Part shown: positions 2,171 through 62,331 of the stretch, piece by piece | Position numbering within the stretch: position 1 is the first letter of the stretch | How the letters are laid out: every line of letters starts with the position of its first letter | Assembly: GCA_036491125.1 (NCBI GenBank) | Contig: DASXCO010000064.1 | Location: 18,552 to 82,551 of the forward strand | DNA: 64,000 nucleotides | Source: Acidimicrobiales bacterium | Lineage (GTDB): Bacteria; Actinomycetota; Acidimicrobiia; Acidimicrobiales; AC-9 | Direction of reading: 5' to 3' | Position numbers and translations under genes: made by a program | Notes under the pieces: generated by a model | The model's input: the letters and a program-made list of their open reading frames with translations, nothing else | Databases searched by the model: none | What the model was told of the DNA's origin: nothing

Positions 2171-2301
2171 CCGGCTCTGTTGCTGGCGGCTTCGCCGCGC
2201 CCGGGCGGGGCCCCATCCCCGCCCTCCTCCGAAGCGGCTGGGGCCCCCACCCCGCCGCCGGCTCTGTTGCTGGCGGCTTCGCCGCGCCCGGGCGGGGCCC
2301 C
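2171..2301. repeat. Direct repeat, 87-bp period: identical 44-bp cores at 2171-2214 and 2258-2301
   Basis: ccggctctgttgctggcggcttcgccgcgcccgggcggggcccc occurs twice. Copy 1 is followed by the hairpin GGGCGGGG-ccccat-CCCCGCCC (2203-2224). Lies in the rpiB/GH38 divergent promoter region. Confidence 0.8.
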
Positions 2302-2307
2302 CAGCCC

Positions 2308-2313
2308 TAGCCT
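2308..2313 (+). promoter_or_regulatory. -10-like TAGCCT placed 6 nt before the GH38 ATG (possible leaderless promoter)
   Basis: cccTAGCCTgaccccATG. The TANNNT hexamer ends 6 nt before the A of ATG at 2320, and there is no SD. The same ccc-TAG-N-CT-N6-start layout occurs at 9739. Confidence 0.3.
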
Positions 2314-2319
2314 GACCCC

Positions 2320-4962: not shown

Positions 4963-4972
4963 CCGCCGCGGC

Positions 4973-8565: not shown

Positions 8566-9579
8566 TCAGCCGCGGATGCCGTACAGCTCGGTCTTTGCCT
8601 CCCTCTGCATCAAGGCGGTGATCGCCTCGGGCACGGTCTTGCCGTCGCGGATGACGGCGGCCACCTGCTCGGCTATGGGCATCTCGACGCCGTGCCGGGT
8701 GGCCAACTCGACGACAGGTCCAGAGGTCTTCACTCCTTCGGCCACCATACGCATCTCGGCCACGATCTCCTCGATCTGACGGCCCTGGCCCAGCGCCTCA
8801 CCGACATAGCGATTGCGGCTCTGGCGGCTGATGCAGGTCGCGACCAGATCACCCATGCCGGCCAGCCCCGAGAACGTCAGGGGGTCGCCACCGATGGCGA
8901 TGCCGAGCCGGGTGAGCTCGGCGAGACCCCGGGTCACCAGCGCGGCGCGGGTGTTGTCGCCGAAGCCCATACCGTCGGTCATGCCCGCCGCGATGGCGAT
9001 GACGTTCTTCAACGCTCCGGCGATCTCGCAGCCGATCACGTCGGGATTGGTGTACACACGGAACATCCCGCTCGAGAACAGTTGTTGCAGCTCGGCGGCG
9101 ATGCCTTCGTCGGTCAGGGCCACGACGCTCGCCGCCGGATGGCCCGCGAGGATCTCACGCGCCAGATTGGGGCCGGTGAGCACACCCACGGGACGGGCAG
9201 AGCCGGGCGCCACCTCGACGACGACCTCGGTCATGCGCTTCAGCGAGTCCTGCTCGATTCCCTTGGCGAGGCTGACAACTGGGGTGGTGGCACCGAGGTA
9301 CGGCGCCAGGTCGGCGATCACGGCCCGGAAGCCGTGCGACGGGACGCCCATCACCACCACGTCCGCACCGGCCACGGCCTCCTCGAGCGACGCCGTGGCA
9401 CTCAGACGGTCCGGAAGCTGGATGCCGGGCAGGTACGAGCCGTTCACGTGGTCGACGGCGATCTCCTGCGCCAGCTCGGGTCGCCTGGCCCACAGGGTCG
9501 CGGGGGCATTGGTGGCGACAAGCGACGCCACCGCTGTCCCCCACGAGCCCGCACCGACGACTGCGACCCTGGTCACCAC
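8566..9579 (-). CDS. gpsA: NAD(P)H-dependent glycerol-3-phosphate dehydrogenase
   Basis: VAVVGAGSWGTAVA...NGSYLPGI...GPNLAREI...KNVIAIAAGM...GDLVATC.S..SRN; full-length GpsA pattern. Confidence 0.9.
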   Translation of the reverse strand: MVTRVAVVGAGSWGTAVASLVATNAPATLWARRPELAQEIAVDHVNGSYLPGIQLPDRLSATASLEEAVAGADVVVMGVPSHGFRAVIADLAPYLGATTPVVSLAKGIEQDSLKRMTEVVVEVAPGSARPVGVLTGPNLAREILAGHPAASVVALTDEGIAAELQQLFSSGMFRVYTNPDVIGCEIAGALKNVIAIAAGMTDGMGFGDNTRAALVTRGLAELTRLGIAIGGDPLTFSGLAGMGDLVATCISRQSRNRYVGEALGQGRQIEEIVAEMRMVAEGVKTSGPVVELATRHGVEMPIAEQVAAVIRDGKTVPEAITALMQREAKTELYGIRG

Positions 9580-9586
9580 CCAGCCA

Positions 9587-9750
9587 CCCTAGGCGCAGCA
9601 GCGCCTACGGGCTATCTCCCCGCCGGACCTCCCGGGCCGGCCCTAGGCGCAGCAGCGCCTGCGGGCTATCTCTCCGGCCGGCCTCCCGGACCGGCCCTAG
9701 GCGCAGCAGCGCCTGCGGGCTATCTCTCCGGCCGGCCCTAGACTGGCCGG
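9587..9750. repeat. Tandem repeat, 54-bp unit x about 3 (9587-9640, 9641-9694, 9695-9735 plus a 15-bp stub)
   Basis: Unit ccctaggcgcagcagcgcctgcgggctatctctccggccggcctcccggaccgg. Each unit holds two hairpins: AGGCGC-agca-GCGCCT and GGCCGG-cctcccgga-CCGGCC. The array fills the whole gpsA/cofC divergent intergenic region. Confidence 0.85.
9739..9744 (+). promoter_or_regulatory. -10-like TAGACT placed 6 nt before the cofC GTG (possible leaderless promoter)
   Basis: cccTAGACTggccggGTG. The hexamer matches TANNNT, whereas the repeat units upstream carry cccTAGGCG instead. Confidence 0.3.
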
Positions 9751-10383
9751 GTGGGACGCGAAGGCGTGAGCTCATCGCCGGGGCGTCAGGGCCGGCCGCC
9801 CTCGGCCGCCTTTCGTATCGGTCCTGAGGCGGTGCTCGTACCGGTCAAGGCGTTCGCCGACGCCAAGCGGCGCCTGGCACCCGCCCTCCCCCCCGAGGAG
9901 CGAGCGAGCCTCGCCCGATCAATGGCCGAGGGCGTCGTGGCTGCCGCCGGCACACTTCCTGTGGCAGTGGTCTGCGACGACAACGACGTCGCCGTGTGGG
10001 CCCGCCAACTCGGCGCCCTGGTGATATGGGAGCCGGAACGGGGCCTGAACGGCGCCGTGGAGGCTGGGGTAAGTCGGCTCGGGGCCGCCGGAGCGGTGCG
10101 GGTGACCGTTGCCCACGGCGACCTGCCGCTCGCCCTCGATCTCACCTGGGTTGGTCGCTTCCCGGGAGTCACGCTCGTCCCCGACCGCCATCGCGACGGC
10201 ACCAACGTGGCGTGTGTGCCCACCGCGGTCGGCTTCAGGTTCTCGTACGGGCCAGGCTCGTTCGCGCGCCACGAGCACGAGGCGCGCCGCCTGGGGCTGC
10301 CCCTCCGAGTCGTGGAGGAGCCCCTTCTGGCGTGGGACGTCGATCAACCCGCCGATCTGGATTACGGGCGCTGCCGGTCCTGA
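9751..10383 (+). CDS. cofC: 2-phospho-L-lactate / phosphoenolpyruvate guanylyltransferase (F420 biosynthesis)
   Basis: AVLVPVKAFADAKRRL...ERASLARSMAEGVV...DGTN...SFARHEHEARRLG...AWDVDQPADL; CofC/FbiD pattern. Alternative in-frame start is GTG 9832 (VLVPVK). Confidence 0.75.
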   Translation: MGREGVSSSPGRQGRPPSAAFRIGPEAVLVPVKAFADAKRRLAPALPPEERASLARSMAEGVVAAAGTLPVAVVCDDNDVAVWARQLGALVIWEPERGLNGAVEAGVSRLGAAGAVRVTVAHGDLPLALDLTWVGRFPGVTLVPDRHRDGTNVACVPTAVGFRFSYGPGSFARHEHEARRLGLPLRVVEEPLLAWDVDQPADLDYGRCRS

Positions 10384-11152: not shown

Positions 11153-11161
11153 TCTCCGATT

Positions 11162-11207
11162 CCGGCTTCCCGGGCCGGCGTGTCCTGGGGCCGGCCTCCC
11201 AGCCGGG
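11162..11207. repeat. Two degenerate copies of the GC hairpin core between convergent genes
   Basis: CCGGCttcccggGCCGG (11162-11178) and ggggCCGGCctcccaGCCGGgc, variants of the GCCGGCC-TCCCG-GGCCGGC core found elsewhere in the window. Confidence 0.4.
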
Positions 11208-11717
11208 CTACCTGGAGGCCCTCTTCGTCGACTTGCGAGCTCGAGACGCGGCGGTCGACTTGGTGCCCTTTCGCGCCGGCGCTCTCGTGGTCTTGCGAGC
11301 CCGGCCCTTCACCGCTTTGCGAGCCGGAGCCTTGGTCGCCTTGCGAGCCGGAGCCCTCGTCGTCTTGCGAGTGGTCTTGCGGGTCGCCTTCCGGGCGGTC
11401 TTGCGGGCCGGAGCCTTCGTCGCCTTACGAGCCGTCTTGCGGGTCTTCGCCGTCTTGCGGGCCGGAGCCTTGGTCGTCTTGCGAGCGGCCTTCGTGGTCT
11501 TCCTGGCCGGGGTACGGCCCGCCGTCCGCGACTTCTTGGCCAGTGACTTCGACGTCTTCGACGCCGACTTGCTGGCCTTCTTGGCCAGGCTGCTGCCCTT
11601 GCGCGCCGCGGATGCCCGTGTGCTGCTCACCCGGCGCTTGGCTGACTTTTTGGCCCTGCCCGTCGAACCTGCGACGCGCTTCTCCGCTGCCGAAGCCGCT
11701 TTCCTGATCGCTGCCAT
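11208..11717 (-). CDS. Histone H1-like Lys/Arg/Ala/Thr-rich repeat protein (169 aa)
   Basis: MAAIRKAASAAEKR... followed by many ARKTTKAPARK-type repeats. ATG has SD AGGTGA. Starts 8 nt after the HU stop, so probably co-transcribed. Confidence 0.7.
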   Translation of the reverse strand: MAAIRKAASAAEKRVAGSTGRAKKSAKRRVSSTRASAARKGSSLAKKASKSASKTSKSLAKKSRTAGRTPARKTTKAARKTTKAPARKTAKTRKTARKATKAPARKTARKATRKTTRKTTRAPARKATKAPARKAVKGRARKTTRAPARKGTKSTAASRARKSTKRASR

Positions 11718-11725: not shown

Positions 11726-12148
11726 CTACCGCTTCCTAACGGCTTTCGCCGTCTTGTTGGTCGTCTTCTTCTTCGCCGGAGCCTTCTTGGCCACCGGCCC
11801 CTTGTTGGCGGGAGCCCTCTTCGAGGTGGCCTTCCTGCCCGGCGCTGTCTTCTTGGCCTTCTTTATCGGTCGGTTCGTGTTGAGGGCTTCCTTGAACGCC
11901 GATCCAGCTGCGAACCGCACACCCTTCGATGCGTTGATTCGTACTGGCGCCCCAGTCTGCGGGTTGCGGCCCATACGGGCGTTGCGCCTCGTCGGGTTGA
12001 ACGTGCCGAAGCCGATCAGCGCAACCCTGTTACCCGTTCGCACCGCCTCCATAACCGTCGACATCACCGCGTCAACGGCGCGCTCGGCTTGACGCTTCTC
12101 GAGAGCAGTAGCTGCGCCGACCGCCTCGATCAGCTGGGACTTGTTCAC
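11726..12148 (-). CDS. hup: HU family nucleoid protein with basic C-terminal tail (HupB-like)
   Basis: (M)NKSQLIEAVG...ALIGFGTFNPTRRNARMGRNPQTGAPVRINASKGVRFAAGSAFK, then a PAKK-type tail. Start moved to the second GTG (12148) because GAGGAG lies 5 nt upstream and HU proteins begin MNK. Confidence 0.9.
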   Translation of the reverse strand: MNKSQLIEAVGAATALEKRQAERAVDAVMSTVMEAVRTGNRVALIGFGTFNPTRRNARMGRNPQTGAPVRINASKGVRFAAGSAFKEALNTNRPIKKAKKTAPGRKATSKRAPANKGPVAKKAPAKKKTTNKTAKAVRKR

Positions 12149-12209
12149 CGCCACCTCCTCATCCCTTGCTCGTTGTAGTGACGCAGTTTCCCTGTAATGA
12201 AAAAGGTTA

Positions 12210-18299: not shown

Positions 18300-19883
18300 T
18301 CAGTTGATCCGGCGTTCCCGGCCCTCCCAGTAGGGCGAGCGGAGCTTGAACTTCTGCAGCTTGCCTGTGGCCGTGCGCGGCAGGCTGTCGCGAAGCTCGA
18401 CCGATGTCGGGCACTTGAAGTGCGCCAGCTCGTTGCGGCAGAACTCGATCAGCTCGGCCTCGTCGACCGCGGTACCGGGCCGGGCAACCACGAGGGCCTT
18501 CACGGTCTCGCCCCAGCGCTCGTCGGGCACCCCGATCACCGCCGCCTCGGCCACGGCCGGATGCTGGTACAGGTGGCCCTCGACCTCGATCGACGAGACG
18601 TTCTCGCCTCCGCTGATGATCACGTCCTTCTTGCGGTCCTCGATCGTGAGGTGAGGACCGTCCATGAAGCCGCCGTCGCCGGTGCGGAACCAGACGTTCT
18701 CGTCCTCGGGCCCGCCTTCCGGGCCGGCCGGGCCGAGCACAGCCGCCGACTCCTCCGGTTGGCGCCAGTAGCCGGCGAAGATGTGGTTGGAGCGCGCGAG
18801 CACCTCACCCTCCTCGTCGGTGCGGACCTTGACGCCCACGGCCGGGAGCCCGGCCCGGCTGAGCCGCCGGGCCCGCTCAGGAGGATCGAGCTCGTCCCAC
18901 TCCAGCGGGGCCCTGTTGACGGTGAGCAGCGGCGAGGTCTCGGTCAGGCCGTAGATCTGGATGAACTCCCAACCGAGCTCGTCGCCCACGCGCTCGATGA
19001 TCCTCGCGGGCGGCGGCGCGCCGGCGACCACGATTCGGACCGTGCCCGCGCCCGGGACCGTGCGGCCCTGCTCCCGACGGGCGGCTGCCGCGTCGAGCAC
19101 GGCTGCCACCACCGCCGGGGCACCACACATGAGCGTCACGCCCTCGGACTCCACCCGGGCGAGGATCTCCTCACCGTCGACCTTGCGCAGGACGACGTGA
19201 CGGGCGCCCATCCCCGTGGCGGCGTAGGGCATGCCCCAACCGTTGCAGTGGAACATCGGCAGCGTGTGGAGCAGCACGTCCCGGTCGGTGACAGTCGTGT
19301 GCCATCCGAAGACGACGGCGTTCAGCCAGCAGTTGCGGTGCGTGAGCTGCACGCCCTTGGGTCGGGCCGTGGTGCCTGAGGTGTAGTTGATGCTGCAGGT
19401 GGCGCGCTCGTCCGGGTCCCATCGGTTCGGGCCGACGGCGTCGTCGCCCAGCTCGGCGAAGAGCTCCCGGTCCCGCACGCCGTCGAGCACGATGCGCTCT
19501 TTCACCTTGACCTCGGCCTGCGCCTCGTCCAGCTCGGGGTCGATCAGCATGACCGTGGACCCCGAGTGGTCGACGATGTAGCCGATCTCCTGGGCGTTCA
19601 ACCTGAAGTTGACCGGCACGAGCACCCGCCCGAAGCCGCTGACGCCGAAGTAGGAGACCAGGAACCGTCCGGAGTTCGGGCTCACGATCGCCACCCGCTC
19701 TCCCTGGCCGACACCCATGCGGTCGAGGGCGGCGGCCATTCCCCGGGCCCGCCTGTGCAGCTGGGCGTAGGTCAGCCGGCCGAACGAGCCCGTCTCCCCC
19801 GGCTCGTCGACCAGGGCGACCCGGTCGGCGTGAGCGGAGCCCGCCCGCTCGAGGAAGTCGCCGACGGTAAGCGGTACCTCCAT
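18300..19883 (-). CDS. AMP-dependent acyl-CoA synthetase/ligase
   Basis: INYTSGTTARPKGVQLTHRN...FHCNGWG...IYGLTETS...FRTGDGG...ISGGENVSSIEVE...LPRTATGKLQKF. Confidence 0.85.
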   Translation of the reverse strand: MEVPLTVGDFLERAGSAHADRVALVDEPGETGSFGRLTYAQLHRRARGMAAALDRMGVGQGERVAIVSPNSGRFLVSYFGVSGFGRVLVPVNFRLNAQEIGYIVDHSGSTVMLIDPELDEAQAEVKVKERIVLDGVRDRELFAELGDDAVGPNRWDPDERATCSINYTSGTTARPKGVQLTHRNCWLNAVVFGWHTTVTDRDVLLHTLPMFHCNGWGMPYAATGMGARHVVLRKVDGEEILARVESEGVTLMCGAPAVVAAVLDAAAARREQGRTVPGAGTVRIVVAGAPPPARIIERVGDELGWEFIQIYGLTETSPLLTVNRAPLEWDELDPPERARRLSRAGLPAVGVKVRTDEEGEVLARSNHIFAGYWRQPEESAAVLGPAGPEGGPEDENVWFRTGDGGFMDGPHLTIEDRKKDVIISGGENVSSIEVEGHLYQHPAVAEAAVIGVPDERWGETVKALVVARPGTAVDEAELIEFCRNELAHFKCPTSVELRDSLPRTATGKLQKFKLRSPYWEGRERRIN

Positions 19884-19937: not shown

Positions 19938-22900
19938 TCAGCTGGCGCGGCTGAGCTCGGGTGACTGCTCGGCCGACCGTTCGATCGCCAACTCCGGGCG
20001 CAGCTGACGCTGAGCTTCCTCGAGCTGGTGTACCGCCGAGGCCCGCTGGAGACGCTGCGTCGGCGACTCCGGGCGTTCGCCCTGGCCACCCAGGGCGAGG
20101 TGCCGGTCCTCCACACCCCACCGCTCCCGATAGCTCTCCACCGCCAGCACCGCCTGGCGCCAGGCGGCCCGCTCGACAGGCGCGGACGGACGCGGACCGA
20201 GCTCGGCCACCAGATAGCCGGGGGGAGAGACCTCCGCCGCTCGGGCCAGGGCCCGCTGCCTGCGGCTCGTCGCCTCGACGAGGATCTCGCGGCTCGCCAG
20301 GTCGGCCCGCCGCGACGTCAACCCCGCCGACCGGCTCCCGGCGTCGGTCTCCAGCTCGCGGCGGCGGTCGCCCAACAAGGCGTCCCGGTCCTCCCATCGC
20401 CGGACCTCCGCCTGGCGAAAGGAGACCTCGATGCGGACATCCTGGGTCTCCTCCATCGCTGCCCGACGACCGATCCAAGGTCTCCTGGCCTCGAGGCGCT
20501 CGAGTCGCGCCGCCGCGTCCGATCGGGCCGACCTGGCGGCGATCAGCCGATCGGTGGTCCGTGCCTGCTCCTGGTCGAGCCGGGACAAGCGGGCGGTGGG
20601 GTCGGGAGCCGGGGCGCGGGCCAGGCGACGCTCGACATCGTCGAGACGACGACCCAGCTGGCCGAGCGAGCCAGCCAACTCGTGCGGGGAGAGCAGTTCG
20701 GGGGGCAGCAGCTCGGGTCCGGTGCGGCGACCGCTCCGACCGACAGTGTCGACGACGTAGCGGTGGTCGTCGCCGGCCGCCGCGCTCACCGCGCGGCCCT
20801 CGCCGAGGACCAGGGCCCGATCCGGCCTCACCCTGCGGGCCTCACGGACCGTGGTGGCGTAGGCGTGCCGCAGCTCGACCTTCGTCGCCGCGGCCTCGCT
20901 CATCGACAACGTCGGTCCCTTGTCGGTGCGGAGCTCGAGCACCTGGCGCTCGACATCGACGCCGGTCACCGTCGCCCGGTCGCCAGTCACCACGCCTGCC
21001 TCTCGGCCCCCGCGACCGATCAGGACACGGTCGCCTACCGCCATCTCGCGGCGGCCGACGTGGATCGACTCGCCCAGCTCGCCGGCGGCGATCAGCTCCG
21101 CACGCGCAGCAGCATTGAGCGCATCGATCTCCCACCGGCTGGAGGCGACCATGACGGGCTCGCTTCCTGCTTGCCGGTCGGCCCACCAGTCGTCAACCAC
21201 CCGTTGGCGAACGGCCGGGGCCGACGAGCCCACGACAACCGGGGCGACGTCGTCGCGATCGACGACCTGAACCCAGCCACTCCCGACGATCCGTTCCGCG
21301 GTCGTCGTCGTTCGGGGCGGGTCGAGGGCGATCGACCCGAGGCTGTCACCCAGCCGACGAAAGGCTCCCGCGTCCACGCTTCGCAGCTGGCGGAGCTCGC
21401 CGAGCACGATCACCTTCGTGCCGGCTCGGTCGGCGCCGTCCAGCAGCTTCCCGAGGCTGGCCGCGCCCAGTCGGCCTGCGTCGTGGACGACGAGGACGTC
21501 AGCGGGTAACGCAGGCCCCGACCGCCCATCCAGCTCGGCCAGCACCTCCTGCTGCGGCGTGGTCTCGATGCCGGTGACCGCCTCGAGGTCTGCCGCCTGC
21601 TCAGCGGTCGGCGCGCTGGCTGCGACGCGCAGACCGGAGGACTGCCATCCATCGCGTGCAGCATCGAGGGCGTCGCTGGAGCCGGCCCACCTGGCACCCG
21701 TGGCGACGACCACGCCCGCTCCCGAGCACAGCAGCTCTCGCACCGCGGCCGACTGCGTCGACGGCAGCTGCGGCCGCAGCGCCAGGGCCGATTCGAGCGC
21801 CGCCGGCTCCACCACACCCACGCCGTCTCGAGTCCGCCGCTGCGCCGAGTCGACGAGCGCGCGCTCGGCAGCCAGCACCTCCGGAGTTGTCCAGCGCGCT
21901 TCCTGGACGTGTCGCGATGCCTCGGCCAGCGAGACCGGCCGGACCAGGTCCGACCTCAACACGGCATTGGTGAGTGCTTCGATCCTCGCCACCTCGGCGC
22001 CATCCGGAAGCGCCGAGCAGCAGGCCCGCACCACGTCCCGACGGGCGAAGGTCGACGCCGACGCTGTCAGGCCTTCGGGGCCGACGATGCTCCTGATCCA
22101 ATCCTCGGTCGGGAGGCCGCCATCCGTCGGCTCCGACCGTCGCGTACCTGTCATGGCCGCGGCCAGCTCGCGTCGACCGAGTCCGGACGATTCGGCGCGC
22201 GCCCGCCACTCACCGACCAGCGTCTCGAAGCTGATCTCCAGGTCCTTGCCGCTCCGCGTGGCGAGTTGGGCGACCCGGGCCGCTCTCGGCCCCGACAGAC
22301 CCTCGTCCGCGAGCCGCGCCTGGATCTCCTGGCGTCGCCTCGAGAACGCCAGCACCACCGGGCGCTCGATCCCCTTGATGTCGGCCATGCCAGCGCGCAG
22401 CTCGCCCCACTCCAGACCAAGACGCCGGCGCAGCTCGTGGCGAAGGTGGGCCTGGTACAGGAGACCTGCGGTGCGGGCGTGCGCATACAGCCCCCGGGCG
22501 TCGAAGGCCGACCACCGACCGTCGCGACCAGCGACCAGGTTCGCCAGCACCACGTGGGTGTGGAGATGGGGATCAGGGGCCCGGCTGGTGCGGTGGAGGA
22601 AGGCCGCCCCCACCACGCCGTCGACGGTGACGCTGTGGCGGCCGTCGCCGCTGCCGCGGCGAGCGGTGATCGCCTCCCGTTCGAGGTAGCCGACGGCGGC
22701 GGCGACGGCGGACTCGTGGGCGACCCGCACCTGATCGGCGGCCGCGGGGTCCCCGAGGGCGAAGCACAGCGACACCGACTTCGGAGCTGCGAAGGTCAGG
22801 TCGAAGCCGGCAACCCGCACCCGGTCCTGGGCCGGGTTGAGCAGCTCGCCTGAAGCGGGGTCGGCGCCGGCCAGCACCGCTTCGAGCTCGGAGGCGGCGA

Positions 22901-23051
22901 CGGATCCCCGCAGGCCGAGGGCCTCGGCGCCCCCGCCCAGCCAGACCCCGTCAGGCTCCTGGCCGGGACGGCGATGGTCCTCCCTGCCGGCGGCGACGCC
23001 TTCGAGGTAGTAGCGGGCACCGCCCCGTCTCACCTTGGCGATGCTGAGCAT
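19938..23051 (-). CDS. MobF-family (TrwC/TraA-type) relaxase with degenerate helicase module
   Basis: MLSIAKV...GARYYLEG...GFDLTFAAPKSVS...FLHRTSRAPDPHLHTHVVLAN (HUH His-triad). The AAA_30/RecD-like region is present but the P-loop reads GARWAGSS and Walker B reads VVHDAG. The C-terminal coiled-coil plus YRERWGV motif is typical of actinobacterial TraA. Start could also be 23063 or 23066. Confidence 0.85.
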   Translation of the reverse strand: MLSIAKVRRGGARYYLEGVAAGREDHRRPGQEPDGVWLGGGAEALGLRGSVAASELEAVLAGADPASGELLNPAQDRVRVAGFDLTFAAPKSVSLCFALGDPAAADQVRVAHESAVAAAVGYLEREAITARRGSGDGRHSVTVDGVVGAAFLHRTSRAPDPHLHTHVVLANLVAGRDGRWSAFDARGLYAHARTAGLLYQAHLRHELRRRLGLEWGELRAGMADIKGIERPVVLAFSRRRQEIQARLADEGLSGPRAARVAQLATRSGKDLEISFETLVGEWRARAESSGLGRRELAAAMTGTRRSEPTDGGLPTEDWIRSIVGPEGLTASASTFARRDVVRACCSALPDGAEVARIEALTNAVLRSDLVRPVSLAEASRHVQEARWTTPEVLAAERALVDSAQRRTRDGVGVVEPAALESALALRPQLPSTQSAAVRELLCSGAGVVVATGARWAGSSDALDAARDGWQSSGLRVAASAPTAEQAADLEAVTGIETTPQQEVLAELDGRSGPALPADVLVVHDAGRLGAASLGKLLDGADRAGTKVIVLGELRQLRSVDAGAFRRLGDSLGSIALDPPRTTTTAERIVGSGWVQVVDRDDVAPVVVGSSAPAVRQRVVDDWWADRQAGSEPVMVASSRWEIDALNAAARAELIAAGELGESIHVGRREMAVGDRVLIGRGGREAGVVTGDRATVTGVDVERQVLELRTDKGPTLSMSEAAATKVELRHAYATTVREARRVRPDRALVLGEGRAVSAAAGDDHRYVVDTVGRSGRRTGPELLPPELLSPHELAGSLGQLGRRLDDVERRLARAPAPDPTARLSRLDQEQARTTDRLIAARSARSDAAARLERLEARRPWIGRRAAMEETQDVRIEVSFRQAEVRRWEDRDALLGDRRRELETDAGSRSAGLTSRRADLASREILVEATSRRQRALARAAEVSPPGYLVAELGPRPSAPVERAAWRQAVLAVESYRERWGVEDRHLALGGQGERPESPTQRLQRASAVHQLEEAQRQLRPELAIERSAEQSPELSRAS

Positions 23052-23191
23052 GACAGCCAGCATCATAGCTTTTCACTGCTTTTCATACACTCTCGTGGAG
23101 GTGGGCGACGAGAGGGAGGGCCGCGGAGCCAATTTCGAGCAGAACCGGGGTCTCGCCGGGCTGGCCGGGGCCGCCGCCCCCGACCCGCGCC

Positions 23192-24121
23192 TCAGCGGTA
23201 GGTGACGAGGATGCGCTCGGCCGCCCGGCGCCCGGCGCCGACGAGGTCGGGAGGATCGATCACCTCGGCCTCGGGGCCGAGGCGCAGGAGCAGCCGCTCC
23301 AGCCACGCCGTGCCGGAGACGGCCAGGGTCACGACCAGGCCGCCATCGGCCCGCTCCTCGACGTCGAGGGTGGGGTACGCCTCGACCACCCAGCGGGCCG
23401 ACCGGTGGATCGACAGGCGCACGAGCCTGGCCTCGGGGCCGGGAGCGAAGACTCCCTCCGGTACCGTCCCCGGCGCGGCGTCGAATCCCTCGTCGGTCAG
23501 GCGGGCGGCCTGCATCCGGTCGATCCGGAAGAGCCGGACGTCGCCTGCCAGGTGGCAGAACCCGTCCAGGTACCAGTGGCCTTCGCTGGAGAACGCCGAG
23601 TAGGGATCGACCCGGCGTGTCGTGCGCTCGTCCCGGGAGGCGGCGTAGTAGTCGATCTCGAGCTGTCGACGGTCGGCGATGGCCCGCTGCACGACCTCGA
23701 GGTTGGCGGGCTCGTCGAGGTCGATGGCGATTCGGCGCCGATCACCGAGCACCGTCTCGAGCTTGGCCAGGGCGCGAGCGAGGGCGCCGTTGGGATCAGC
23801 GCCCGGCACGGCGAGGATGGCACGGGCCGAGGCGGCCACGGTGAAGCCTTCCGCCGCGCTCAGCCGGCGCGGGCGGGCGAGGTGGTCGCCCAGATTGGCC
23901 GACACCCACTCGTCGGACACGATGAGCTCGATGAGCTGATCCGGCGTGTAGGGAGGTAGGCCGCAGCAGGCGGCGAGCTCCAGTAGCGCCACCACCTCGC
24001 GCTCGGGCATCTCGAAGTGGGCAGCCACCTCGGAGATCGGCGCCCCGCCCCGGTCGGCCAACCAGGGCAGGATGGCGAGCAGCCGCCTGAGCCGGTCGCC
24101 GGCGTCGGCCTTCGAGGTCAA
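23192..24121 (-). CDS. pafC: PafC-like HTH-WYL transcriptional regulator
   Basis: DRLRRLLAILPWL...ISEVAAHFEMPEREVVALLELAACCGLPPYTPDQLIEL...LEIDYYAASRDERTTRRVDP...HWYLDGFCHLAGDVRLFRIDRM. Start is TTG 24121, overlapping the pafB stop (TTGA). The track ORF over-extends by 245 aa. Confidence 0.75.
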   Translation of the reverse strand: MTSKADAGDRLRRLLAILPWLADRGGAPISEVAAHFEMPEREVVALLELAACCGLPPYTPDQLIELIVSDEWVSANLGDHLARPRRLSAAEGFTVAASARAILAVPGADPNGALARALAKLETVLGDRRRIAIDLDEPANLEVVQRAIADRRQLEIDYYAASRDERTTRRVDPYSAFSSEGHWYLDGFCHLAGDVRLFRIDRMQAARLTDEGFDAAPGTVPEGVFAPGPEARLVRLSIHRSARWVVEAYPTLDVEERADGGLVVTLAVSGTAWLERLLLRLGPEAEVIDPPDLVGAGRRAAERILVTYR

Positions 24122-29159: not shown

Positions 29160-29360
29160 TGCAGATTCCTTCCGGCGAGGTCGCTCGGACCCACCCGCCC
29201 AGGGTACTGTCCGGCCGGCGCGTTCGGGCGTCTCGGGCTCGGCCCGGTGCTGAACTGGAGGTCAGCCGTAAAGAACCCGGACGGCCAGGGCGGAGTCATA
29301 GCATGTAGACGCCTGGCAGAGGATGCGAGCGACGGGGGCCAACGATGACCACCTCCGACA

Positions 29361-29450
29361 TGGCCGGCCCGGGAGGCCGGCGCGATGGCGAGGCCGGCCC
29401 GGGAGGCCGGCGCGATGGCGAGGCCGGCCCCGAAGGCCCGCGCGATGGCA
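29361..29450. repeat. Tandem repeat, 30-bp unit x3 with hairpin core GCCGGCC-CGGGA-GGCCGGC
   Basis: ggccggcccgggaggccggcgcgatggcga at 29361-29390 and 29391-29420; degenerate third copy at 29421-29450. Lies immediately upstream of the cfa ATG. Confidence 0.85.
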
Positions 29451-29455
29451 AGCCC

Positions 29456-41550: not shown

Positions 41551-42267
41551 ATGGACGACGTTGCTGCCGGAGCCGGCCCGGGAGGCCGACCCGAGGACCC
41601 GGAGACACCCGCCATCCCGGCGGCGACGGTGATCCTGCTGCGGGACCAGGCGTCGGGCCTCGAGACCCTCATGGTCCGGCGCAGTGCCGGGCTGCAGTTC
41701 GGCGGCATGTGGGTGTTCCCAGGCGGGCGGATCGATCCCGACGACCACCCGGTGAGCGGGCCTGACGACGTCATGGCCGCGGCCCGGCGGGCCGCGGCCA
41801 GAGAGGCGGCCGAGGAAGCCGGGCTGGTGATCGACGAGGGCGGGCTGGTCCCCTTCTCCCACTGGACGCCGCCTGCGGCGACGCCCAGGCGCTTCTCGAC
41901 GTGGTTCTTCGTCGCAGCTGCCCCCTCGGGCTCGGTCACCGTGGACGGAGGAGAGATCCACGACCACGCCTGGGTACTTCCGGCCGACGCCCTGCGGCGC
42001 CGCGACCGGGGAGAGTTCGAGCTGGCCCCGCCCACGTGGGTGTCCCTCCATCGGCTGGCCGGGTACGCCGACGTGGCCGCCGCCGTCGCGGATTCGGAGG
42101 TCCGGCGACCAGAGGTCTTCGCCACGAGGGTGGCCAAGGTGGAGGGCGGGGCGGTCGCCCTCTACACCGGTGACGCCGGCTACGAGGACAGCGTGGCCGA
42201 CCGGCCGGGCCCCCGGCACCGACTCTGGATGCTCGGGTCGGGCTGGCGCTACGAGCGGTCGGCGTGA
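41551..42267 (+). CDS. NUDIX hydrolase
   Basis: Internal ATG 41551. Nudix box GMWVFPGGRIDPDD...AAARRAAAREAAEEAGL. Confidence 0.8.
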   Translation: MDDVAAGAGPGGRPEDPETPAIPAATVILLRDQASGLETLMVRRSAGLQFGGMWVFPGGRIDPDDHPVSGPDDVMAAARRAAAREAAEEAGLVIDEGGLVPFSHWTPPAATPRRFSTWFFVAAAPSGSVTVDGGEIHDHAWVLPADALRRRDRGEFELAPPTWVSLHRLAGYADVAAAVADSEVRRPEVFATRVAKVEGGAVALYTGDAGYEDSVADRPGPRHRLWMLGSGWRYERSA

Positions 42268-53875: not shown

Positions 53876-56716
<2,841 letters not shown>

Positions 56717-56926: not shown

Positions 56927-57628
56927 GTGAGATGGCCAATCCGCTCTCTCATCGGCACCATGGCGGCGATCGCCCTCGTACTCTCGGCCCTCCTGGCCGG
57001 GCTTCACTCCGGCGGACGAGGAGCCAGCCCCGCCCCGTCTCGACTGGTGGCCCAGGCCAGCTCGGCAACCTCCTCGCTGACTCCTGGCATCGCCTCCGAG
57101 CAGGCGGCGGTGGACGCGGTCAACCAGCGCCTGTCGGCCGCGACCGACCAGGCCGAGGCCCAGCAACTCCAATTGGCGGCGGCCTGGCTGAGGGCGGCCA
57201 ACGCCCGGCCTTCAGCCCCCAGACCGGCCACCGAACCAGCCCCCGCACGGCCCGTCGCCGCCCCCCCGACGGACGCGGGACCGGGTCAGCGGGCCCTGGC
57301 CGCCGCCGAAGCCGAGCTGGGCAAGCCCTACCGCTACGCCGGTGCCGGGCCCAACAGCTTCGACTGCTCAGGGCTGACCATGTGGGCATGGAGGACCGCA
57401 AGCGTGTCCCTACCTCACTCCGCCACTGATCAGTACCAGTCGACACCGCACGTGGCGCTGTCCAGCCTCCAACCCGGCGACCTGCTGTACTTCGGGTCGA
57501 GCACCAGCGACATCGCTCACGTGACCATGTACGTGAGCCCTGGTCGCATGATCGAGGCGGAGGACACGGGCACCGTCGTGAGCATCAACCCCATCCGCTC
57601 TGGCCTGGTGGGCGCCAGCCGGCCCTAG
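56927..57628 (+). CDS. NlpC/P60 family peptidoglycan endopeptidase (RipA-like), N-terminal TM/signal
   Basis: [24 protein letters not shown]......LPHSATDQY......GDLLYF......HVTMYV. Start uncertain (GTG 56867, GTG 56927 or ATG 56960). Confidence 0.8.
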
Positions 57629-57656
57629 GGGCGGCGCGCCGTCAGGCCATTCGCCT

Positions 57657-57677
57657 GGCCGGCCTCCCGGGCCGGCC
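57657..57677. terminator. GC hairpin GGCCGGCC-tcccg-GGCCGGCC (single copy of the dispersed repeat core) between convergent genes
   Basis: 8-bp all-GC stem that abuts the TAA stop of the minus-strand gene (57678) and lies 29 nt after the NlpC/P60 stop. Confidence 0.5.
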
Positions 57678-58538
57678 TTAGCCACCCGCCCCGGCGGCCC
57701 TGGTCAGCTGCACCTGAGGCTGCACGGGGGGGCTCGACGCCCATTTGCCGGACGAGGGCGTCCACCGCAGGCCGGCGAAGGTCACCCCCGTGATGCGATA
57801 GGCGTAGGCGTTGGCGACGAGCCAGCTCGCCACGGTCCAGCCCCGTGCCGGCGTCAAGGCGGCGCCCAGGGCGGGGGACCCGAGCTCAGTCGTCATGGCG
57901 TCGGTGAGGGTGCCGGTCCCGCTGGTCCGGCTCGGAGTGGAGAACTGACAGGTCAGGCCGCCGGGAACCTCGCCGGTCAGCACCTGGGCCAGGTCCCGGG
58001 CCTCGGGCTCCCAGAAGGCGTAGGCCTCGGGTGCGGCGCTGCGCTGCACCCGCTGGGCGGCCTCGGTGACGGGCAGCGAAGCCCATCCAGGGACCTGCAC
58101 CAGGGCCCGGTAGAAGGCCGACGCTGCGTAGCTGGGGACGATGAGCTGCGAGGCCGATCCCCAACCCTGGGACGGGCGCTGCTGGAAGAGCCCGACGGAG
58201 TCCAGATCGCCGTTGGGGATGTTGTGCAGTCGCGATTCCTGGAGGGCGGCGGCCAGGGCGACCGTCACACCGTGGTCCTCGACGCCGTCGCGCTTGCCGA
58301 CGGCGGCGATCGTGGCCGCACTCGCCGCCTGGGCGAGCTCGAGCGGGTAGCTGCGAGACGCCACCGTGGCCGTGCACCCCGGGGCGGCGCTCGGACGGCC
58401 AAAGCGGGTGACCACGATCGTCGCGCCACCGGCGATGATGGCGAGGACCAGGGCGGTGAGGGCCAGTCGCCGGCCCCAACGGGGCCGGCGAGCATTCAGC
58501 TCGGTACCGGAGGGCGGTGTGTCTTCCAGGGTGGGCAA
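57678..58538 (-). CDS. Secreted/anchored protein with lysozyme-like (SLT-type E-S...GLFQ) motif; putative cell-wall enzyme
   Basis: TM anchor RLALTALVLAIIAGGATIVV. ALQESRLHNIPNGDLDSVGLFQQRPSQGWG resembles the ES...GLxQ signature of lytic transglycosylases. Start uncertain (TTG 58538 chosen); the track ORF extension to 58997 looks non-coding. Confidence 0.55.
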   Translation of the reverse strand: MPTLEDTPPSGTELNARRPRWGRRLALTALVLAIIAGGATIVVTRFGRPSAAPGCTATVASRSYPLELAQAASAATIAAVGKRDGVEDHGVTVALAAALQESRLHNIPNGDLDSVGLFQQRPSQGWGSASQLIVPSYAASAFYRALVQVPGWASLPVTEAAQRVQRSAAPEAYAFWEPEARDLAQVLTGEVPGGLTCQFSTPSRTSGTGTLTDAMTTELGSPALGAALTPARGWTVASWLVANAYAYRITGVTFAGLRWTPSSGKWASSPPVQPQVQLTRAAGAGG

Positions 58539-59000
58539 AGTCCGTCCTGGGGCTCGGCCGCTGTCGACGCGGCTTGGGTGAGGGACTCCTGGAGGCTCCC
58601 AACCCCAGATCGCCCCGCTCAATAGTGCCGTGGCTCGGCGCCCTCTGCGAGTCACCCGAGGCCCGAGTGACAGGCGGAGATGCGACGACGAGGCTACCGA
58701 TCGCGGCCAGAAGCGACAAAGGAAACACGGGTCACACCGGGAATGTGGCGGTGTCCAACCGCGTCGAGTTCTCGACCCTGGCGATGCCGCTGTTTGTATC
58801 CCGTCATCGATCCACATCGCGGCAATCGAGGTTGGACAAACGGCTACAAGATCGGCCAACGAACGACGACGCGCCATCGCGCCTGACCCCGCTGACGTGG
58901 ACCGCGTCCGCGTGAATACGCGCGCGACACAGCACCATCCACCTCGACACACATAACTCCCGCTACCATTTATGTGCTCCGTCATATAGTCCAACACGAG

Positions 59001-59399
59001 ATGGGGGTGATGACGGTGGTAGTAGCAAGGAGACGGGTGGCAAGAGCTGCACCCAAGAAGTCAGCGAGCAAGAAAGCGGTAAGGCGGCGACCTGCCGCGA
59101 GGAAGACCACAGCCAAGAAGGCCGTCAAGCGCAGCCCCGCTGCGCGCAAGACGATCAAGCGCACCACTGCCCGCAAGGCAGTTCGGCGGCCCGCAGCCAA
59201 GAAGACGGCCAAGCGGCCCGCAGCCAAGAAGACGGCCCGGCGTCCGGTGGCGAAGAAGGCTGCCCGGCGTCCGGCGGCGAAGAAGGCCGTTCGGCGCACG
59301 ACAGCCAAGAAGGCCGTGCGGCGCCCGGCAGCCAAGAAGACAACCCGACGTCCCGTCGCCAAGCGGGCCCGGAAGACCACAAGCGCCAGAAAGCGCTGA
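59001..59399 (+). CDS. Histone H1-like basic repeat protein (second paralogue)
   Basis: Repeats of AARKTxKRxPAAKKTAKRPAAKK type. TATAGT at 58985-58990, about 10 nt before the ATG, suggests a near-leaderless mRNA. Start could be 58974, 59001 or 59010. Confidence 0.6.
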   Translation: MGVMTVVVARRRVARAAPKKSASKKAVRRRPAARKTTAKKAVKRSPAARKTIKRTTARKAVRRPAAKKTAKRPAAKKTARRPVAKKAARRPAAKKAVRRTTAKKAVRRPAAKKTTRRPVAKRARKTTSARKR

Positions 59400-59589
59400 G
59401 CAGGCAGTACCCGCAGTCTGCGGTCCGCTAGTGGGCCCGGGCTCATCGGGTCGGTGTGTGATCGGCCGCTCCACGGTGTGGTCACGTCGTCCTCGGTGTG
59501 ATGCCAGGGACGGCGTTCCATGCCCTCCGGAGCTTGGTGATCCTGGAGGCGCCGAACACCGGCTTCGTCGAGTCTTCGCTCGGTCGAGC

Positions 59590-60108: not shown

Positions 60109-60111
60109 GCT

Positions 60112-60163
60112 TTGACATTCCCTTCTGGACGGTTAGAGTGTTCAGACATTCCCTTGGGGAATG
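60112..60163 (+). promoter_or_regulatory. Promoter (TTGACA-16 nt-TAGAGT) plus palindromic operator CATTCCC-ttg-GGGAATG in the padR/phyH divergent region
   Basis: -35 at 60112-60117, -10 at 60134-60139. 17-bp palindrome at 60147-60163 over the predicted TSS. GACATTCCCTT also occurs twice (60114-60124, 60145-60155). Confidence 0.35.
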
Positions 60164-60191
60164 ATCGCACCGGCGCACGGAGGAGGGACAC

Positions 60192-60989
60192 ATGACCGAG
60201 GACGCTGCGGCGCTGCTGGCCGAGCGCGGGTACGCGATGATCCCTGACGCAATTAGCGCCGAGCAGGTCAGGTGGGCCCGGGCCGACCTCGAGACGATCC
60301 TGGCCAGCACGCCATCGGGTCGGGACGACTTCGAGGGCCGGCGCACGCGGCGCGTGTACGCGCTGTTCGCCAAGACCCGCTCGCTCGACGCCCTGGCCCT
60401 GCATCCCGAGGTGCTGGCCACCCTCGACCGGGTGCTCGGGGCCTGTCAGCTGAGCGCCCCGGCCGGCATCTCGATCGGCCCCGGCGAGCAGGCCCAGCCC
60501 CTCCATCCCGATGACGCCATCTACCCGCTGCCCCGACCGCACGACGAGGTTGTCATGAACGTGATGTGGCCGTTGCAGGAGTTCACCGAGGCGAACGGGG
60601 CCACCCGTATCGTGCCCGGGAGCAACCGCTGGACGACCGAGCGACCCGACCCGGACACCCCGACGGTCACCGTCGAGATGCCGCCAGGCGCGGCGCTGCT
60701 CTACAGCGGGAGCGTGTGGCACGGCGGGGGTGCCAACCGGACCGAGCACGACCGCCTGGGTGTGGTGCTGCACTACGCGGCGTCTTGGCTGCGGCCGGTC
60801 GAGAACCATGTCCTCGCCGTCCCCCCGAGCCTGGCGTCGACCCTCCCCGAGCGCCTCCAGGAGCTTCTCGGCTACAACATCCACCCGCCGTTCATCGGCT
60901 ACGTCGACGGCCGCCATCCTCGCAAGCTGCTCGAGGAACGCGAGCCGAACGAGCACGACCGCACGGCGTCGGCTACGGCGAGCTCCTGA
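60192..60989 (+). CDS. Phytanoyl-CoA dioxygenase (PhyH) family Fe(II)/2-oxoglutarate oxygenase
   Basis: QPLHPDD...NVMWPLQEFTEANGATRIVPGSN...ALLYSGSVWHGGGANRT. SD GGAGGAGGG. Confidence 0.8.
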   Translation: MTEDAAALLAERGYAMIPDAISAEQVRWARADLETILASTPSGRDDFEGRRTRRVYALFAKTRSLDALALHPEVLATLDRVLGACQLSAPAGISIGPGEQAQPLHPDDAIYPLPRPHDEVVMNVMWPLQEFTEANGATRIVPGSNRWTTERPDPDTPTVTVEMPPGAALLYSGSVWHGGGANRTEHDRLGVVLHYAASWLRPVENHVLAVPPSLASTLPERLQELLGYNIHPPFIGYVDGRHPRKLLEEREPNEHDRTASATASS

Positions 60990-62331
60990 GGCCTCGGCCG
61001 GCCCGGGAGGCCGGCCGAGGAGAGGAGCCGGCCCGGGAGGCCGGCCGAGGAGAGGAGCCGGCCGGGGAGGCCGGCCCAGAAGAGGAGCCGAGGCCGAACA
61101 GGTGCTGGCCCACCTTGCGCATCTGGATCTCCTCGGAGCCCTCGGTGATGCGGTAGCGCCGGTGGTGGCGGTAGATGTGCTCGAAGGGCATGTGCCGGCT
61201 GTAGCCCACGCCACCACAGGTCTGCATCGCCCGGTCGGCGGCGTCGCACGCCAGGCGATTGGCGCGGTAGTTGCACATGGCGACCTCGTGGGTGACCTCC
61301 ATGTGGTGGTGTCGGTCGAGCGCCCAGGCGGTGGACCGCACCAGCTGGCGCAGCATCGCCGCTTCGGTGTGCAGCTCCACCAGCGGGAACTGGATGGCCT
61401 GGTTCCGCGACAACGGCCGGCCCCACGTCTCGCGCCCGTTGGCATAGGCCACCGCCTCGTTGATGCAGAACTGCGCAGCGCCCAGCGAGGAGGCCGCCTG
61501 GCGGATGCGGTTCTCGTGGACGAAATGCTGGGCCAGCTCGAGACCGTGGTCGACGGCACCGAACACGGCTGACCTCGGCACCCGCACGTCGGCGAGGGTC
61601 ACCTCGGCATGATCGGTGGGCATGTTGAAGGTCCACCAGAAGAAGTCGACCGAGAAACCCGGCGAGTCAGTGGGCACGAGGAAGGCGCTGATCCCGAACG
61701 GTGACGCCGACTCTCCCGACGTCCGGGCGAAGATGATGTCGTGGGTGGCGTGATGCAGCCCCGAGTTGAAGCGCTTGCGCCCGTTGATGACCCACTCGTC
61801 ACCGTCGAGCACCGCCGTCGTGTCGAGATAGGTCGCGTCGGACCCATGGTCGGGCTCGGTGAGCCCGAAAGCGAGGCGGCGCGTCCCGCCGAAGAACCCG
61901 GGCATCCACTCGGCGCGCTGGGCCTCCGTGCCGAAGTCGCGCATCATGAGCACGGTCGGGAAGTTGCCGACGATCGAGCTCTCGTTCTGGAGGTCGTTGT
62001 GCAATCCGAGGCCCCGCGAGGCGAGGTGCTCCCGGATGATCGCCATCTCCAGATTGGTGGCCTCATGCCCGCCGTACTCCTTTGGCAGTGCCCACCGCAG
62101 CCAACCGGCGGCGTCGGCCCGGCGTCGCATCTCGGCCAGCAGCTCCTCCCATTCCTGGCGAGGGACGCCGCCAGCTTCGAAATCGGTGCGGGCGTACTCA
62201 CGTCGATGATCGAAGAAGCGAACGTTGTCGTCCTGGCGCTCGAGCGGCACGATCTCCCGCTCGATGAAGTCGTCGAGGGCGCCCAGCGTCGCTTGAATCT
62301 CCTGCGGGATCTCGAAGTCCACGGCTGACAC
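60973..62331 (-). CDS. Acyl-CoA dehydrogenase with repeat-derived C-terminal tail
   Basis: GTG 62331: ...LAFGLTEPDHGSDA...NGRKRF.S.....D....ART...FLVP...PG......MP......V.LADVRVP...FG.PL...Q.IQF.L.....E......RITEGSEEIQ. The last 35-40 aa (GSSSGPASPAGSSPRPASRAGSSPRPASRAG) are encoded by the 30-bp repeat array. The track ORF N-terminal 359 aa is junk. Confidence 0.85.
   Translation of the reverse strand: MSAVDFEIPQEIQATLGALDDFIEREIVPLERQDDNVRFFDHRREYARTDFEAGGVPRQEWEELLAEMRRRADAAGWLRWALPKEYGGHEATNLEMAIIREHLASRGLGLHNDLQNESSIVGNFPTVLMMRDFGTEAQRAEWMPGFFGGTRRLAFGLTEPDHGSDATYLDTTAVLDGDEWVINGRKRFNSGLHHATHDIIFARTSGESASPFGISAFLVPTDSPGFSVDFFWWTFNMPTDHAEVTLADVRVPRSAVFGAVDHGLELAQHFVHENRIRQAASSLGAAQFCINEAVAYANGRETWGRPLSRNQAIQFPLVELHTEAAMLRQLVRSTAWALDRHHHMEVTHEVAMCNYRANRLACDAADRAMQTCGGVGYSRHMPFEHIYRHHRRYRITEGSEEIQMRKVGQHLFGLGSSSGPASPAGSSPRPASRAGSSPRPASRAGRGLRSSP
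60998..61087. repeat. Tandem repeat, 30-bp unit x3 with hairpin core GCCGGCC-CGGGA-GGCCGGC
   Basis: ccggcccgggaggccggccgaggagaggag at 60998-61027 and 61028-61057; degenerate copy at 61058-61087. Sits between or overlapping the convergent PhyH and ACAD 3' ends. Confidence 0.85.

Follow-up and report, generated by a model that had tools for sequence, protein, structure and literature searches.

A previously undescribed REP-like family of hairpin repeats with strain-variable arrays and frequent in-frame coding copies in soil Acidimicrobiales

Results

A hairpin repeat recurs across a 64-kb Acidimicrobiales window

We analysed a 64-kb stretch of contig DASXCO010000064.1 from an Acidimicrobiales bacterium (G+C ~70%; hereafter, the window), in which a short GC-rich hairpin repeat lies between and within genes that include gpsA and those for an NlpC/P60 protein, PhyH, an acyl-CoA dehydrogenase, a NUDIX hydrolase and a cyclopropane-fatty-acyl-phospholipid synthase (CMAS). 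The core hairpin, G-GCCGGCC-CGGGA-GGCCGGC-C, comprises 21 nt with an 8-bp stem and a 5-nt loop, a palindromic unit of the kind found in repetitive extragenic palindromic (REP) sequences. The outermost, stem-extending bases recur in related loci, with G at position −1 in 64 of 99 sites and C at position +1 in 74 of 99. The core is built from 1.5 copies of the 13-mer GCCGGCCCGGGAG; its GCCGGC motif is self-complementary, so that the periodicities of 13, 30 and 51–54 nt described below all run between copies of the same motif.

A preliminary description of this DNA had reported that the core recurs, and the counts exceed what base composition predicts: the stem pattern GCCGGCC-N5-GGCCGGC with at most one mismatch gave 12 matches in the window against 0.46 expected (0 of 100 shuffles reached 12), and the full 19-mer with at most three mismatches gave 14 against 0.71 expected. 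Two modules carry the core. The short form consists of the core plus an 11-nt spacer with a period of 30 nt (occasionally 29–33) and forms arrays of 2–6 units, with spacers that are identical within an array, different between arrays and loosely matched by the consensus CCGAnGAcacn. The long form, of 51–54 nt, runs (C)TAG, core, ~12–16 nt, a second hairpin AGGCGC-n3-4-GCGCCT and AG, and its arrays reach 14 units (related locus L110). The copies and associated features of the window, with four sites labelled A (2166), B (9587), C (29363) and D (60997), are as follows.

29363–29451, + strand: site C array of three short-form 30-nt units (core plus the 11-nt spacer gcgatggcgag), with cores at 29363, 29393 and 29423 (3 mismatches)
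60997–61090, + strand: site D array of three short-form 30-nt units, spacer cgaggagagga, with cores at 60997, 61027 and 61057 (1 mismatch)
9587–9750, − strand: site B array of 2.8 long-form 54-nt units, with reverse cores at 9623 (3 mismatches) and 9677 (1 mismatch)
57625–57681, − strand: single long-form two-hairpin unit of ~57 nt, with an exact reverse core at 57658
41572–41590, + strand: single core with 1 mismatch in the NUDIX open reading frame (ORF), read in frame as AGPGGR
11161–11208, − strand: two degenerate cores (11161 and 11190, with 2 and 3 mismatches) in a convergent gap
18710–18728, − strand: possible decayed copy with 2 mismatches in the gene of an AMP-binding enzyme, which may be a chance match
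2166–2301, no strand assigned: site A, a different two-hairpin repeat in two 49-nt copies that fills a divergent gap
9739–9744, + strand: TAGACT, a TANNNT −10-like hexamer on the CTAG end of the site B array, putative promoter element

Tandem Repeats Finder recovered the same arrays (period 30 × 2.9 copies at 29362–29449, 30 × 3.1 at 60997–61090 and 54 × 2.8 at 9587–9737). The preliminary description had placed three cores each at 29.4 kb and 61.0 kb, and they lie there with a 30-nt period; it was equally right about degenerate copies near 11162–11207 and about flanks that are unlike between arrays. It had assigned a reverse core to every 54-bp unit at 9587–9750, which holds for two units but not for the third (9695–9748), where half a core is present. 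Its single copy at 57.6 kb is indeed an exact reverse core, yet part of a full two-hairpin unit rather than a bare core. Of its five or more intergenic sites, recurrence stands and 'intergenic' is half right, given that the arrays at 29.4 kb and 61.0 kb and the copy at 41.6 kb lie inside ORFs (3 of 7 window sites). The copy at 41572–41590 and the possible one at 18710–18728 had been overlooked.

In the site B unit, CTAG is followed by the second hairpin (AGGCGC-tgct-GCGCCT), a spacer and the core hairpin, and the 57625–57681 unit resembles it, being 76% alike across 46 nt (57636–57681). The 5-bp core of the second hairpin (columns 44–48 with 53–57) has each pair formed in at least 92% of cells and covaries, with changes on both sides in 5 of 9 pairs tested and a covariation score that 0 of 500 shuffles reached. 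Sites D and B (the latter on the + strand) folded better than shuffles (z = −3.1 to −3.9), the site C array did no better than shuffles (z = +0.4), and the hairpins were present in the minimum-free-energy folds. All arrays are head-to-tail; an inverted pair occurred only once (L111) among ~100 sites.

As the preliminary description had noted, site A is a separate repeat with 87-bp spacing; its 49-nt copies (2166–2214 and 2253–2301) are 96% identical and contain the hairpins GCGGC-ttc-GCCGC and GGGCGGGG-n6-CCCCGCCC. The same element (CTGGCGGCTTCGCCGC(G)CCCGGGCGGGGCCCC...) recurs directly 3′ of a TGA stop codon in a related metagenome-assembled genome (MAG; L010 7963–7999), indicating that site A belongs to a second dispersed two-hairpin family with a long-form-like architecture.

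The family is multi-copy and restricted to one clade

We scanned one genome per species (185,579 genomes) for exact matches to the 19-mer. Among the 120 stretches listed, 73 came from ~14 soil Acidimicrobiales-type MAGs and held at least 118 exact copies, many of them in arrays; in two of these MAGs, exact copies numbered at least 35 (14 stretches) and at least 26 (18 stretches). The other 47 listed stretches, from Streptomyces, Chloroflexi, Proteobacteria and others, held one copy each, as chance would produce for a GC-rich 19-mer. As a control, we examined 80 metagenome loci of similar G+C that encode PhyH relatives: 79 lacked the core at up to two mismatches, and only the closest (87% identity) retains it. 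In 15 more distant PhyH loci that were read downstream, the acyl-CoA dehydrogenase neighbour is no longer shared, so that these serve as a negative control only. A viral collection yielded three single, chance-like matches. The MAG arrays set against singletons elsewhere, the PhyH-locus control and the viral singletons together indicate a real, multi-copy, clade-restricted family. An Rfam scan of the window at gathering thresholds matched no family, and the 19-mer core was absent in both orientations from the literature searched.

Other origins for the repeats were considered and set aside. A phage-borne element was rejected on the viral scan, with its three chance-like singletons only. An assembly artefact was rejected because assemblies made independently from short and from long reads contain the elements. 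A CRISPR array was rejected on its 11-nt spacers, identical or near-identical within an array, and on the lack of a cas gene among the 47 window ORFs scanned.

Arrays vary in unit number and copies decay without compensation

Related loci were taken as ~8-kb stretches per MAG, ~0.6 Mb in all, and included L001, a JGI soil-metagenome contig that is 99.7% identical over window positions 54.8–63.5 kb. The preliminary description had called for a comparison of array copy numbers across strains, and this comparison was positive: the 57625–57681 site has one unit in the window and five 53-nt units in L001; at site B the window carries 2.8 units and the orthologous L067 (88% identity) one; and MAG pairs differed by 14 versus 3 units (L110 and L096), 3 versus 1 (L083 and L053) and 3 versus 2 (L056 and L101). 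At the CMAS N-terminus, orthologues carry 1, 2, 3 or 5 units, and the RibD orthologues of two MAGs differ by an exact 30-nt (10-codon) indel. Head-to-tail units of strain-variable number are the behaviour of variable-number tandem repeats (VNTRs) of the mycobacterial interspersed repetitive unit (MIRU) type. The preliminary suggestion of local amplification, as in bacterial interspersed mosaic elements (BIMEs) or DNA like miniature inverted-repeat transposable elements (MITEs), is thus upheld for dispersed, clade-restricted hairpin repeats in strain-variable arrays.

Intact copies are identical, and in the stems of degenerate copies 55 pairs are broken, 10 are G-U and 3 are compensated. These mostly uncompensated stem changes, together with the half cores found at 'empty' orthologous sites, fit birth-and-decay dynamics as for selfish or neutral repeats; conserved structure does not fit. 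Separately, we observed a ~3.6-kb segment that is present in L039 (3351–6959), is missing from the orthologous region of L109 (5537–5732) and starts beside a long-form element (L039 3372).

Many copies are read in frame within genes

The site C array lies in ORF 29345–30766, encoding CMAS, where it is read as (AGPGGRRDGE)x3; from the ATG at 29345, the protein begins MTTSDM-(AGPGGRRDGE)x3-KPMANLLEP. Across CMAS orthologues (four DNAs and six proteins), the MTTS start, a Shine–Dalgarno (SD)-like GGGGG or GGAGG ~7 nt before it and the frame through 1–5 units are conserved, and in the orthologous DNAs no SD-like sequence precedes the internal ATG. Because the upstream start, its SD-like sequence and the frame are conserved and the internal ATG lacks such a sequence, the site C array is, by prediction, a translated N-terminal extension of CMAS; 185 nt of ordinary intergenic DNA (29160–29344) lie upstream of it. 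Gene calls place the start of this same gene sometimes before the array and sometimes after it. In a more distant CMAS homologue with 68% identity (P0016), the same position is taken by a different N-terminal tandem repeat, PVRNNGG x4, and coding tandem repeats seem to settle repeatedly at the CMAS N-terminus.

Site D is flanked by PhyH (+ strand, stop codon 60987–60989) and an acyl-CoA dehydrogenase (− strand), and read antisense it forms the last ~38 residues of the dehydrogenase, whose TAG stop (60973–60975) lies inside the PhyH gene. Nearly all of 119 acyl-CoA dehydrogenase homologues (82–87% identity) are 410–428 aa long, and the 15 homologue C-termini that we read end 3–10 residues past a conserved LFG motif, except for P0216, whose longer tail is unrelated. 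In the NUDIX hydrolase (ORF 41551–42267), residues 8–13 (AGPGGR) come from the 41572 copy.

The preliminary description had placed the elements at gene boundaries and promoters, but they are not limited to these, as the three window sites in ORFs show; in related MAGs, moreover, 52 of 101 sites overlap genes predicted on the basis of codon usage, so the family is not predominantly extragenic as REPs are. Genes that host copies in relatives include those for UvrD, Mfd, PurH, RibD, an acyl-CoA synthetase and a metalloprotease; their translations are real proteins, in which the peptide falls in linkers or loops. A palindromic repeat is thus read in frame in many unrelated protein genes, as is characteristic of Rickettsia palindromic elements (RPEs). 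Intragenic copies are biased in orientation (41 sense versus 11 antisense, P = 4e-5), and among the 41 sense sites 30 are in frame 0 (AGPGGR; P = 3e-7), 2 in frame 1 and 9 in frame 2. Internal sites were both sense and in frame 0 in 13 of 26 cases against an expected one-sixth (P = 9e-5). The frame-0 peptide is AGPGGRP[DE]x[TA], and over all intragenic copies it falls at termini, in linkers and in loops. A protein search with a five-unit consensus of this decapeptide brought up no candidates, which may reflect low-complexity words missing from the index. The 30-nt unit equals ten codons and is stop-free in all six frames, so that stop codons are not the cause of the frame bias. Mismatches in degenerate intragenic copies number 11, 7 and 9 at codon positions 1, 2 and 3, with no third-position excess, and spacer variability, measured as spacer entropy, is weakly 3-periodic.

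These biases bring in a rival explanation, in which the Gly/Pro-rich decapeptide itself is selected as a disordered linker or terminal tag, the hairpin being incidental and the intergenic copies debris. The strong sense and frame-0 bias and the ten-codon period favour it, as do the CMAS array, in frame behind a conserved start and SD-like sequence and with many core changes at third positions, and a spacer consensus that translates as P-[DE]-[DE/G]-[TA]. Selection on protein could not hold nucleotides identical across unrelated genes at synonymous positions as well, however, and it gives no account of the roughly half of sites that are intergenic, the 11 intragenic antisense copies (site D among them) or the TAG tags and second hairpin of the long form, which lack coding sense. 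Degenerate copies without third-position enrichment and the faintness of the spacer periodicity likewise run counter to it, and we consider this explanation quite unlikely.

Many intergenic copies abut stop codons or fill divergent gaps

Of 48 intergenic sites, 9 have TAG immediately 5′ of the core, where the background is 0.28% (P = 2e-14), and 5 more have AGG there (CTAGG where read, that is, TAG one base off). CTAG is the usual form of the tag, GTAG being seen at two sites (L045 and L026), and the 30-nt coding form carries no tag. In 5 cases the core follows a stop codon at 0 nt, the TAG there being the stop of the upstream gene. Long-form units start 0–43 nt 3′ of the stop codon of a co-oriented gene in 16 of ~30 cases, and copies between co-directional genes are sense in 16 cases versus 6. 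In the window, the 57625–57681 unit exactly fills a convergent gap, its CTAG end providing the TAG stop of the NlpC/P60 gene (57626–57628) and its CTAAG end the TAA stop of the minus-strand gene (57678–57680). The 11161–11208 copies sit between a PIG-L deacetylase gene (stop codon 11150–11152) and a Lys-rich ORF (stop 11208–11210, minus strand), and the orthologous site in L067 holds better-preserved copies with 30-nt spacing.

Two divergent gaps are filled by arrays, site B between gpsA (GTG 9577–9579, minus strand) and a CofC-like gene (GTG 9751) and site A between rpiB (−) and a GH38 mannosidase gene (+). The preliminary description had counted three arrays that fill divergent promoter regions, but only these two (2166–2301 and 9587–9750) do so, the 29363 array being placed after a conserved start codon, inside the ORF. 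On the CTAG ends of sites A and B, TAGNNT hexamers stand exactly 6 nt before three of the four start codons: TAGACT (9739–9744) upstream of GTG 9751, its mirror image TAGGGT (9586–9591, minus strand) upstream of the gpsA GTG, and TAGCCT (2308–2313) upstream of ATG 2320. This spacing matches the geometry of leaderless promoters, from which we infer that the hexamers may act as promoters. An ~18-bp motif, CTAGNNTGGCNGGGTGG, occurs at array ends in the window (9578–9593 and 9738–9760), in L096 (~1310–1326) and in L110 (3476–3492); it forms an inverted repeat around the site B array and also flanks the unrelated L096/L110 array, and within it lie a TANNNT hexamer and the GTG at which the adjacent gene starts. 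The site B array is bracketed by an 18-bp inverted repeat, CCACCCRGCCANNCTAGG, which is found at one end of another array too.

Single copies do lie at convergent 3′ ends, as previously described, but their likeness to terminators is weak: no T run of the kind that an intrinsic terminator would require follows any window copy, and a classical terminator was rejected on this missing U-tract. More broadly, the hairpins could be host-selected cis-acting RNA elements (terminators, mRNA 3′-end protectors or 5′ regulators) that spread by function rather than mobility. Their position just past co-oriented stop codons and their sense bias both between co-directional genes and within genes are what such elements would show; the second hairpin covaries, sites D and B (+ strand) fold better than shuffles, and one orthologous convergent gap holds a different GC hairpin instead (L072 versus L090). 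Yet the window copies lack a U-tract, half of the sites lie in coding sequence, where termination would be harmful, and the same 19-mer, loop included, recurs at more than 100 unrelated sites, unlike what convergent selection for a stem-loop would yield. Decay breaks 55 pairs and compensates 3, unit number swings from 1 to 5 or 14 with no visible constraint, site C folds no better than its shuffles and Rfam offers no match. On balance, a host-selected RNA element is unlikely.

Other features of the window

A 1,042-aa TrwC-type HUH relaxase with an AAA_30 helicase domain is encoded at 19938–23066 (−) and adjoins two WYL/PafBC-like regulators (23192–25068, −) in an otherwise housekeeping region; the relaxase may be what is left of an integrative conjugative element. 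The relaxase was considered as a partner of the repeats and rejected, since no other fetched repeat-bearing locus has a homologue.

At 58974–59399 (+), a gene built on a 27-nt tandem repeat codes for a Lys/Ala-rich HC2/histone-H1-like protein, and L001 has one additional 27-nt unit at the position of window 59186, making this a second, purely coding VNTR. An HU (Bac_DNA_binding) ORF and a separate Lys-rich repeat ORF with 24/54-nt tandem repeats (11208–11717 and 11726–12154, both −) resemble one HupB/MDP1-type gene that a stop codon or frameshift has broken in two. Between ~42000 and ~46700, G+C falls to ~0.65 in a block with genes for a GH10 xylanase, a GH5 cellulase, a response regulator and a SnoaL/LEH-like protein; this block may have been horizontally acquired.

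Discussion

We describe a previously undescribed REP-like family with VNTR dynamics and frequent in-frame coding copies. In our assessment it is probably a lineage-specific, REP-kind family of small palindromic repeats in a soil Acidimicrobiales group. New sites might be seeded in trans, either by a RAYT (REP-associated tyrosine transposase)-like single-strand DNA (HUH) enzyme or by microhomology-driven copying into GCCGGC targets. Arrays could then expand and contract as strands slip and mispair or as the self-complementary GCCGGC motifs recombine unequally, and selection would filter insertions so that survivors lie after stop codons, between divergent leaderless promoters or in frame, the in-frame survivors encoding harmless Gly/Pro-rich disordered peptides. 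Likely side effects would be stem-loops where mRNAs end, changes to protein N- and C-termini and changed spacing of divergent promoters.

Several observations weigh against a REP-kind family. The preliminary description saw no RAYT in the window, and we agree: a phmmer search with E. coli RayT (ORFs of at least 70 aa) found no RAYT/Y1 match across the window and ~0.6 Mb of related loci, its sole match being an unrelated deltaproteobacterial locus, and Pfam scans of the 47 window ORFs found no transposase. The inverted pairs typical of RAYT systems (BIMEs, or REPINs, REP doublets forming hairpins) are nearly absent, at 1 in ~100 sites. The likeness to REP/BIME repeats that the preliminary description had drawn therefore holds, but membership in a REP/RAYT system is unproven: units run head-to-tail, not as inverted pairs, and the loci sampled yielded no Y1 transposase. 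Flanking 11-mers are only slightly more similar within sites (4.2 of 11) than between them (3.4 of 11), with no consistent target-site duplication. No unambiguous recent new insertion was caught in the sampled related loci, and many sites are common to genomes that are just 84–94% identical, which implies that most copies are old and that arrays are old but labile. Every 'empty' orthologous site that we found retains half a core, so these may be deletions rather than targets that were never occupied. Related loci were fetched by exact core match, which biases the ratio of intact to decayed copies. Finally, a simple selfish-DNA model leaves the strong frame bias unexplained.

The search for a partner bears on another explanation, that the arrays would be recognition sites maintained and homogenised by a sequence-specific DNA-binding or DNA-processing protein, such as a nucleoid protein, a recombinase or the HUH relaxase of the window. 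E. coli BIMEs are known to bind integration host factor (IHF) and gyrase (Nunvar 2010), intact cores here are perfectly conserved beside variable spacers, and the TrwC-type relaxase gene lies at hand in the same window. None of the genes in the sampled loci co-occurs with the elements, though, the relaxase has no homologue in the other fetched loci, and frequent in-frame intragenic copies together with decay speak against a required site; we rate this explanation as highly unlikely.

The frame bias leaves room for a bolder variant of the REP-like family, in which the 30-nt module is a frame-locked mobile coding cassette, a ten-codon hairpin that enters genes mainly sense and in one frame to act as a copy-variable disordered tag or linker, and the long form supplies stop codons and −10 boxes for leaderless genes. 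With 30 of 52 intragenic sites in one of six possible frames, all of them stop-free, the idea is worth stating, although we find it distinctly doubtful. If true, it would mean either insertion that senses codon phase, for example through copying with GCC-GGC microhomology as primer, or selection that favours strain-to-strain variation in protein termini and promoter spacing, resembling contingency loci, in uncultured soil Actinomycetota.

For the REP-like family as we describe it, the consequences are practical as well as evolutionary. The repeats mislead gene callers, as with the CMAS start and the 38-residue acyl-CoA dehydrogenase tail; they are likely points of breakage or collapse in short-read MAG assemblies; and they are ready VNTR markers for strains of an abundant, uncultured soil lineage. 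They place REP-type repeats in operation in Acidimicrobiales and offer a natural example of repeat DNA that makes disordered termini and linkers, stop codons and possibly −10 boxes. A cognate enzyme, if one exists, would represent a new hairpin-specific DNA-processing activity.

Comparison with known systems

Terminator hairpins without a U-tract, termed 'I-shaped', have been proposed for Actinobacteria, and the repeats share with these and with intrinsic terminators their GC-rich stem-loops just past stop codons and between convergent genes. Intrinsic terminators differ from the present family, which has no U-tract, consists of one identical sequence, is tandem and also occurs inside and upstream of genes. 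MITEs such as Correia/NEMIS, ERIC and RUP are 100–300 bp long, with terminal inverted repeats and target-site duplications; they too are small non-autonomous repeats near genes that can supply promoters, terminators and coding extensions, whereas no consistent target-site duplication is seen here.

MIRU-VNTR loci are dispersed, head-to-tail repeats of 40–100 bp at gene boundaries whose strain-variable unit number makes them typing markers. The present repeats resemble them in being dispersed, head-to-tail and strain-variable in an actinobacterial genome, but MIRUs lack a perfect hairpin and are intergenic within operons, whereas these are hairpin-centred and often coding. RPEs, which Ogata and colleagues reportedly described in 2000, are said to be palindromic repeats that lie in frame in many unrelated genes, including at N-termini, and leave those genes intact. 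Both families add peptide segments to unrelated genes through in-frame palindromic repeats; RPEs are single insertions of ~100–150 bp, unlike the 30-nt or 51–54-nt units in variable arrays found here, in another phylum and without sequence similarity.

E. coli REP sequences start GTAG-GCCGGAT, compared with CTAG-GCCGGCC here. A survey of REPs reports a GTAG tag that gives TAG stop codons, head-to-tail clusters that include flanking DNA, a bias towards the transcribed orientation, mosaics that combine several hairpin types, and copies inside genes, with repair genes such as UvrD hosting many of these; it mentions RPEs alongside REPs, and its text does not mention Actinobacteria (Di Nocera et al. 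2013, PMC3733652). The Acidimicrobiales family departs from REPs in a tag that is mostly CTAG and missing from coding copies, in units that are nearly always head-to-tail rather than inverted dimers and in the roughly half of sites that are intragenic with strong frame bias; relative to REP/RAYT systems, it further differs in that no RAYT was found in the sampled DNA and that its host belongs to the Acidimicrobiales (Actinomycetota). What the two share is a dispersed, species- or clade-specific, GC-rich palindrome of 20–40 nt, in some copies here with an xTAG end that is often the neighbour's stop codon, a preference for gene 3′ sides in the transcribed orientation, hairpin mosaics, some intragenic copies, often in repair genes, and head-to-tail clusters.

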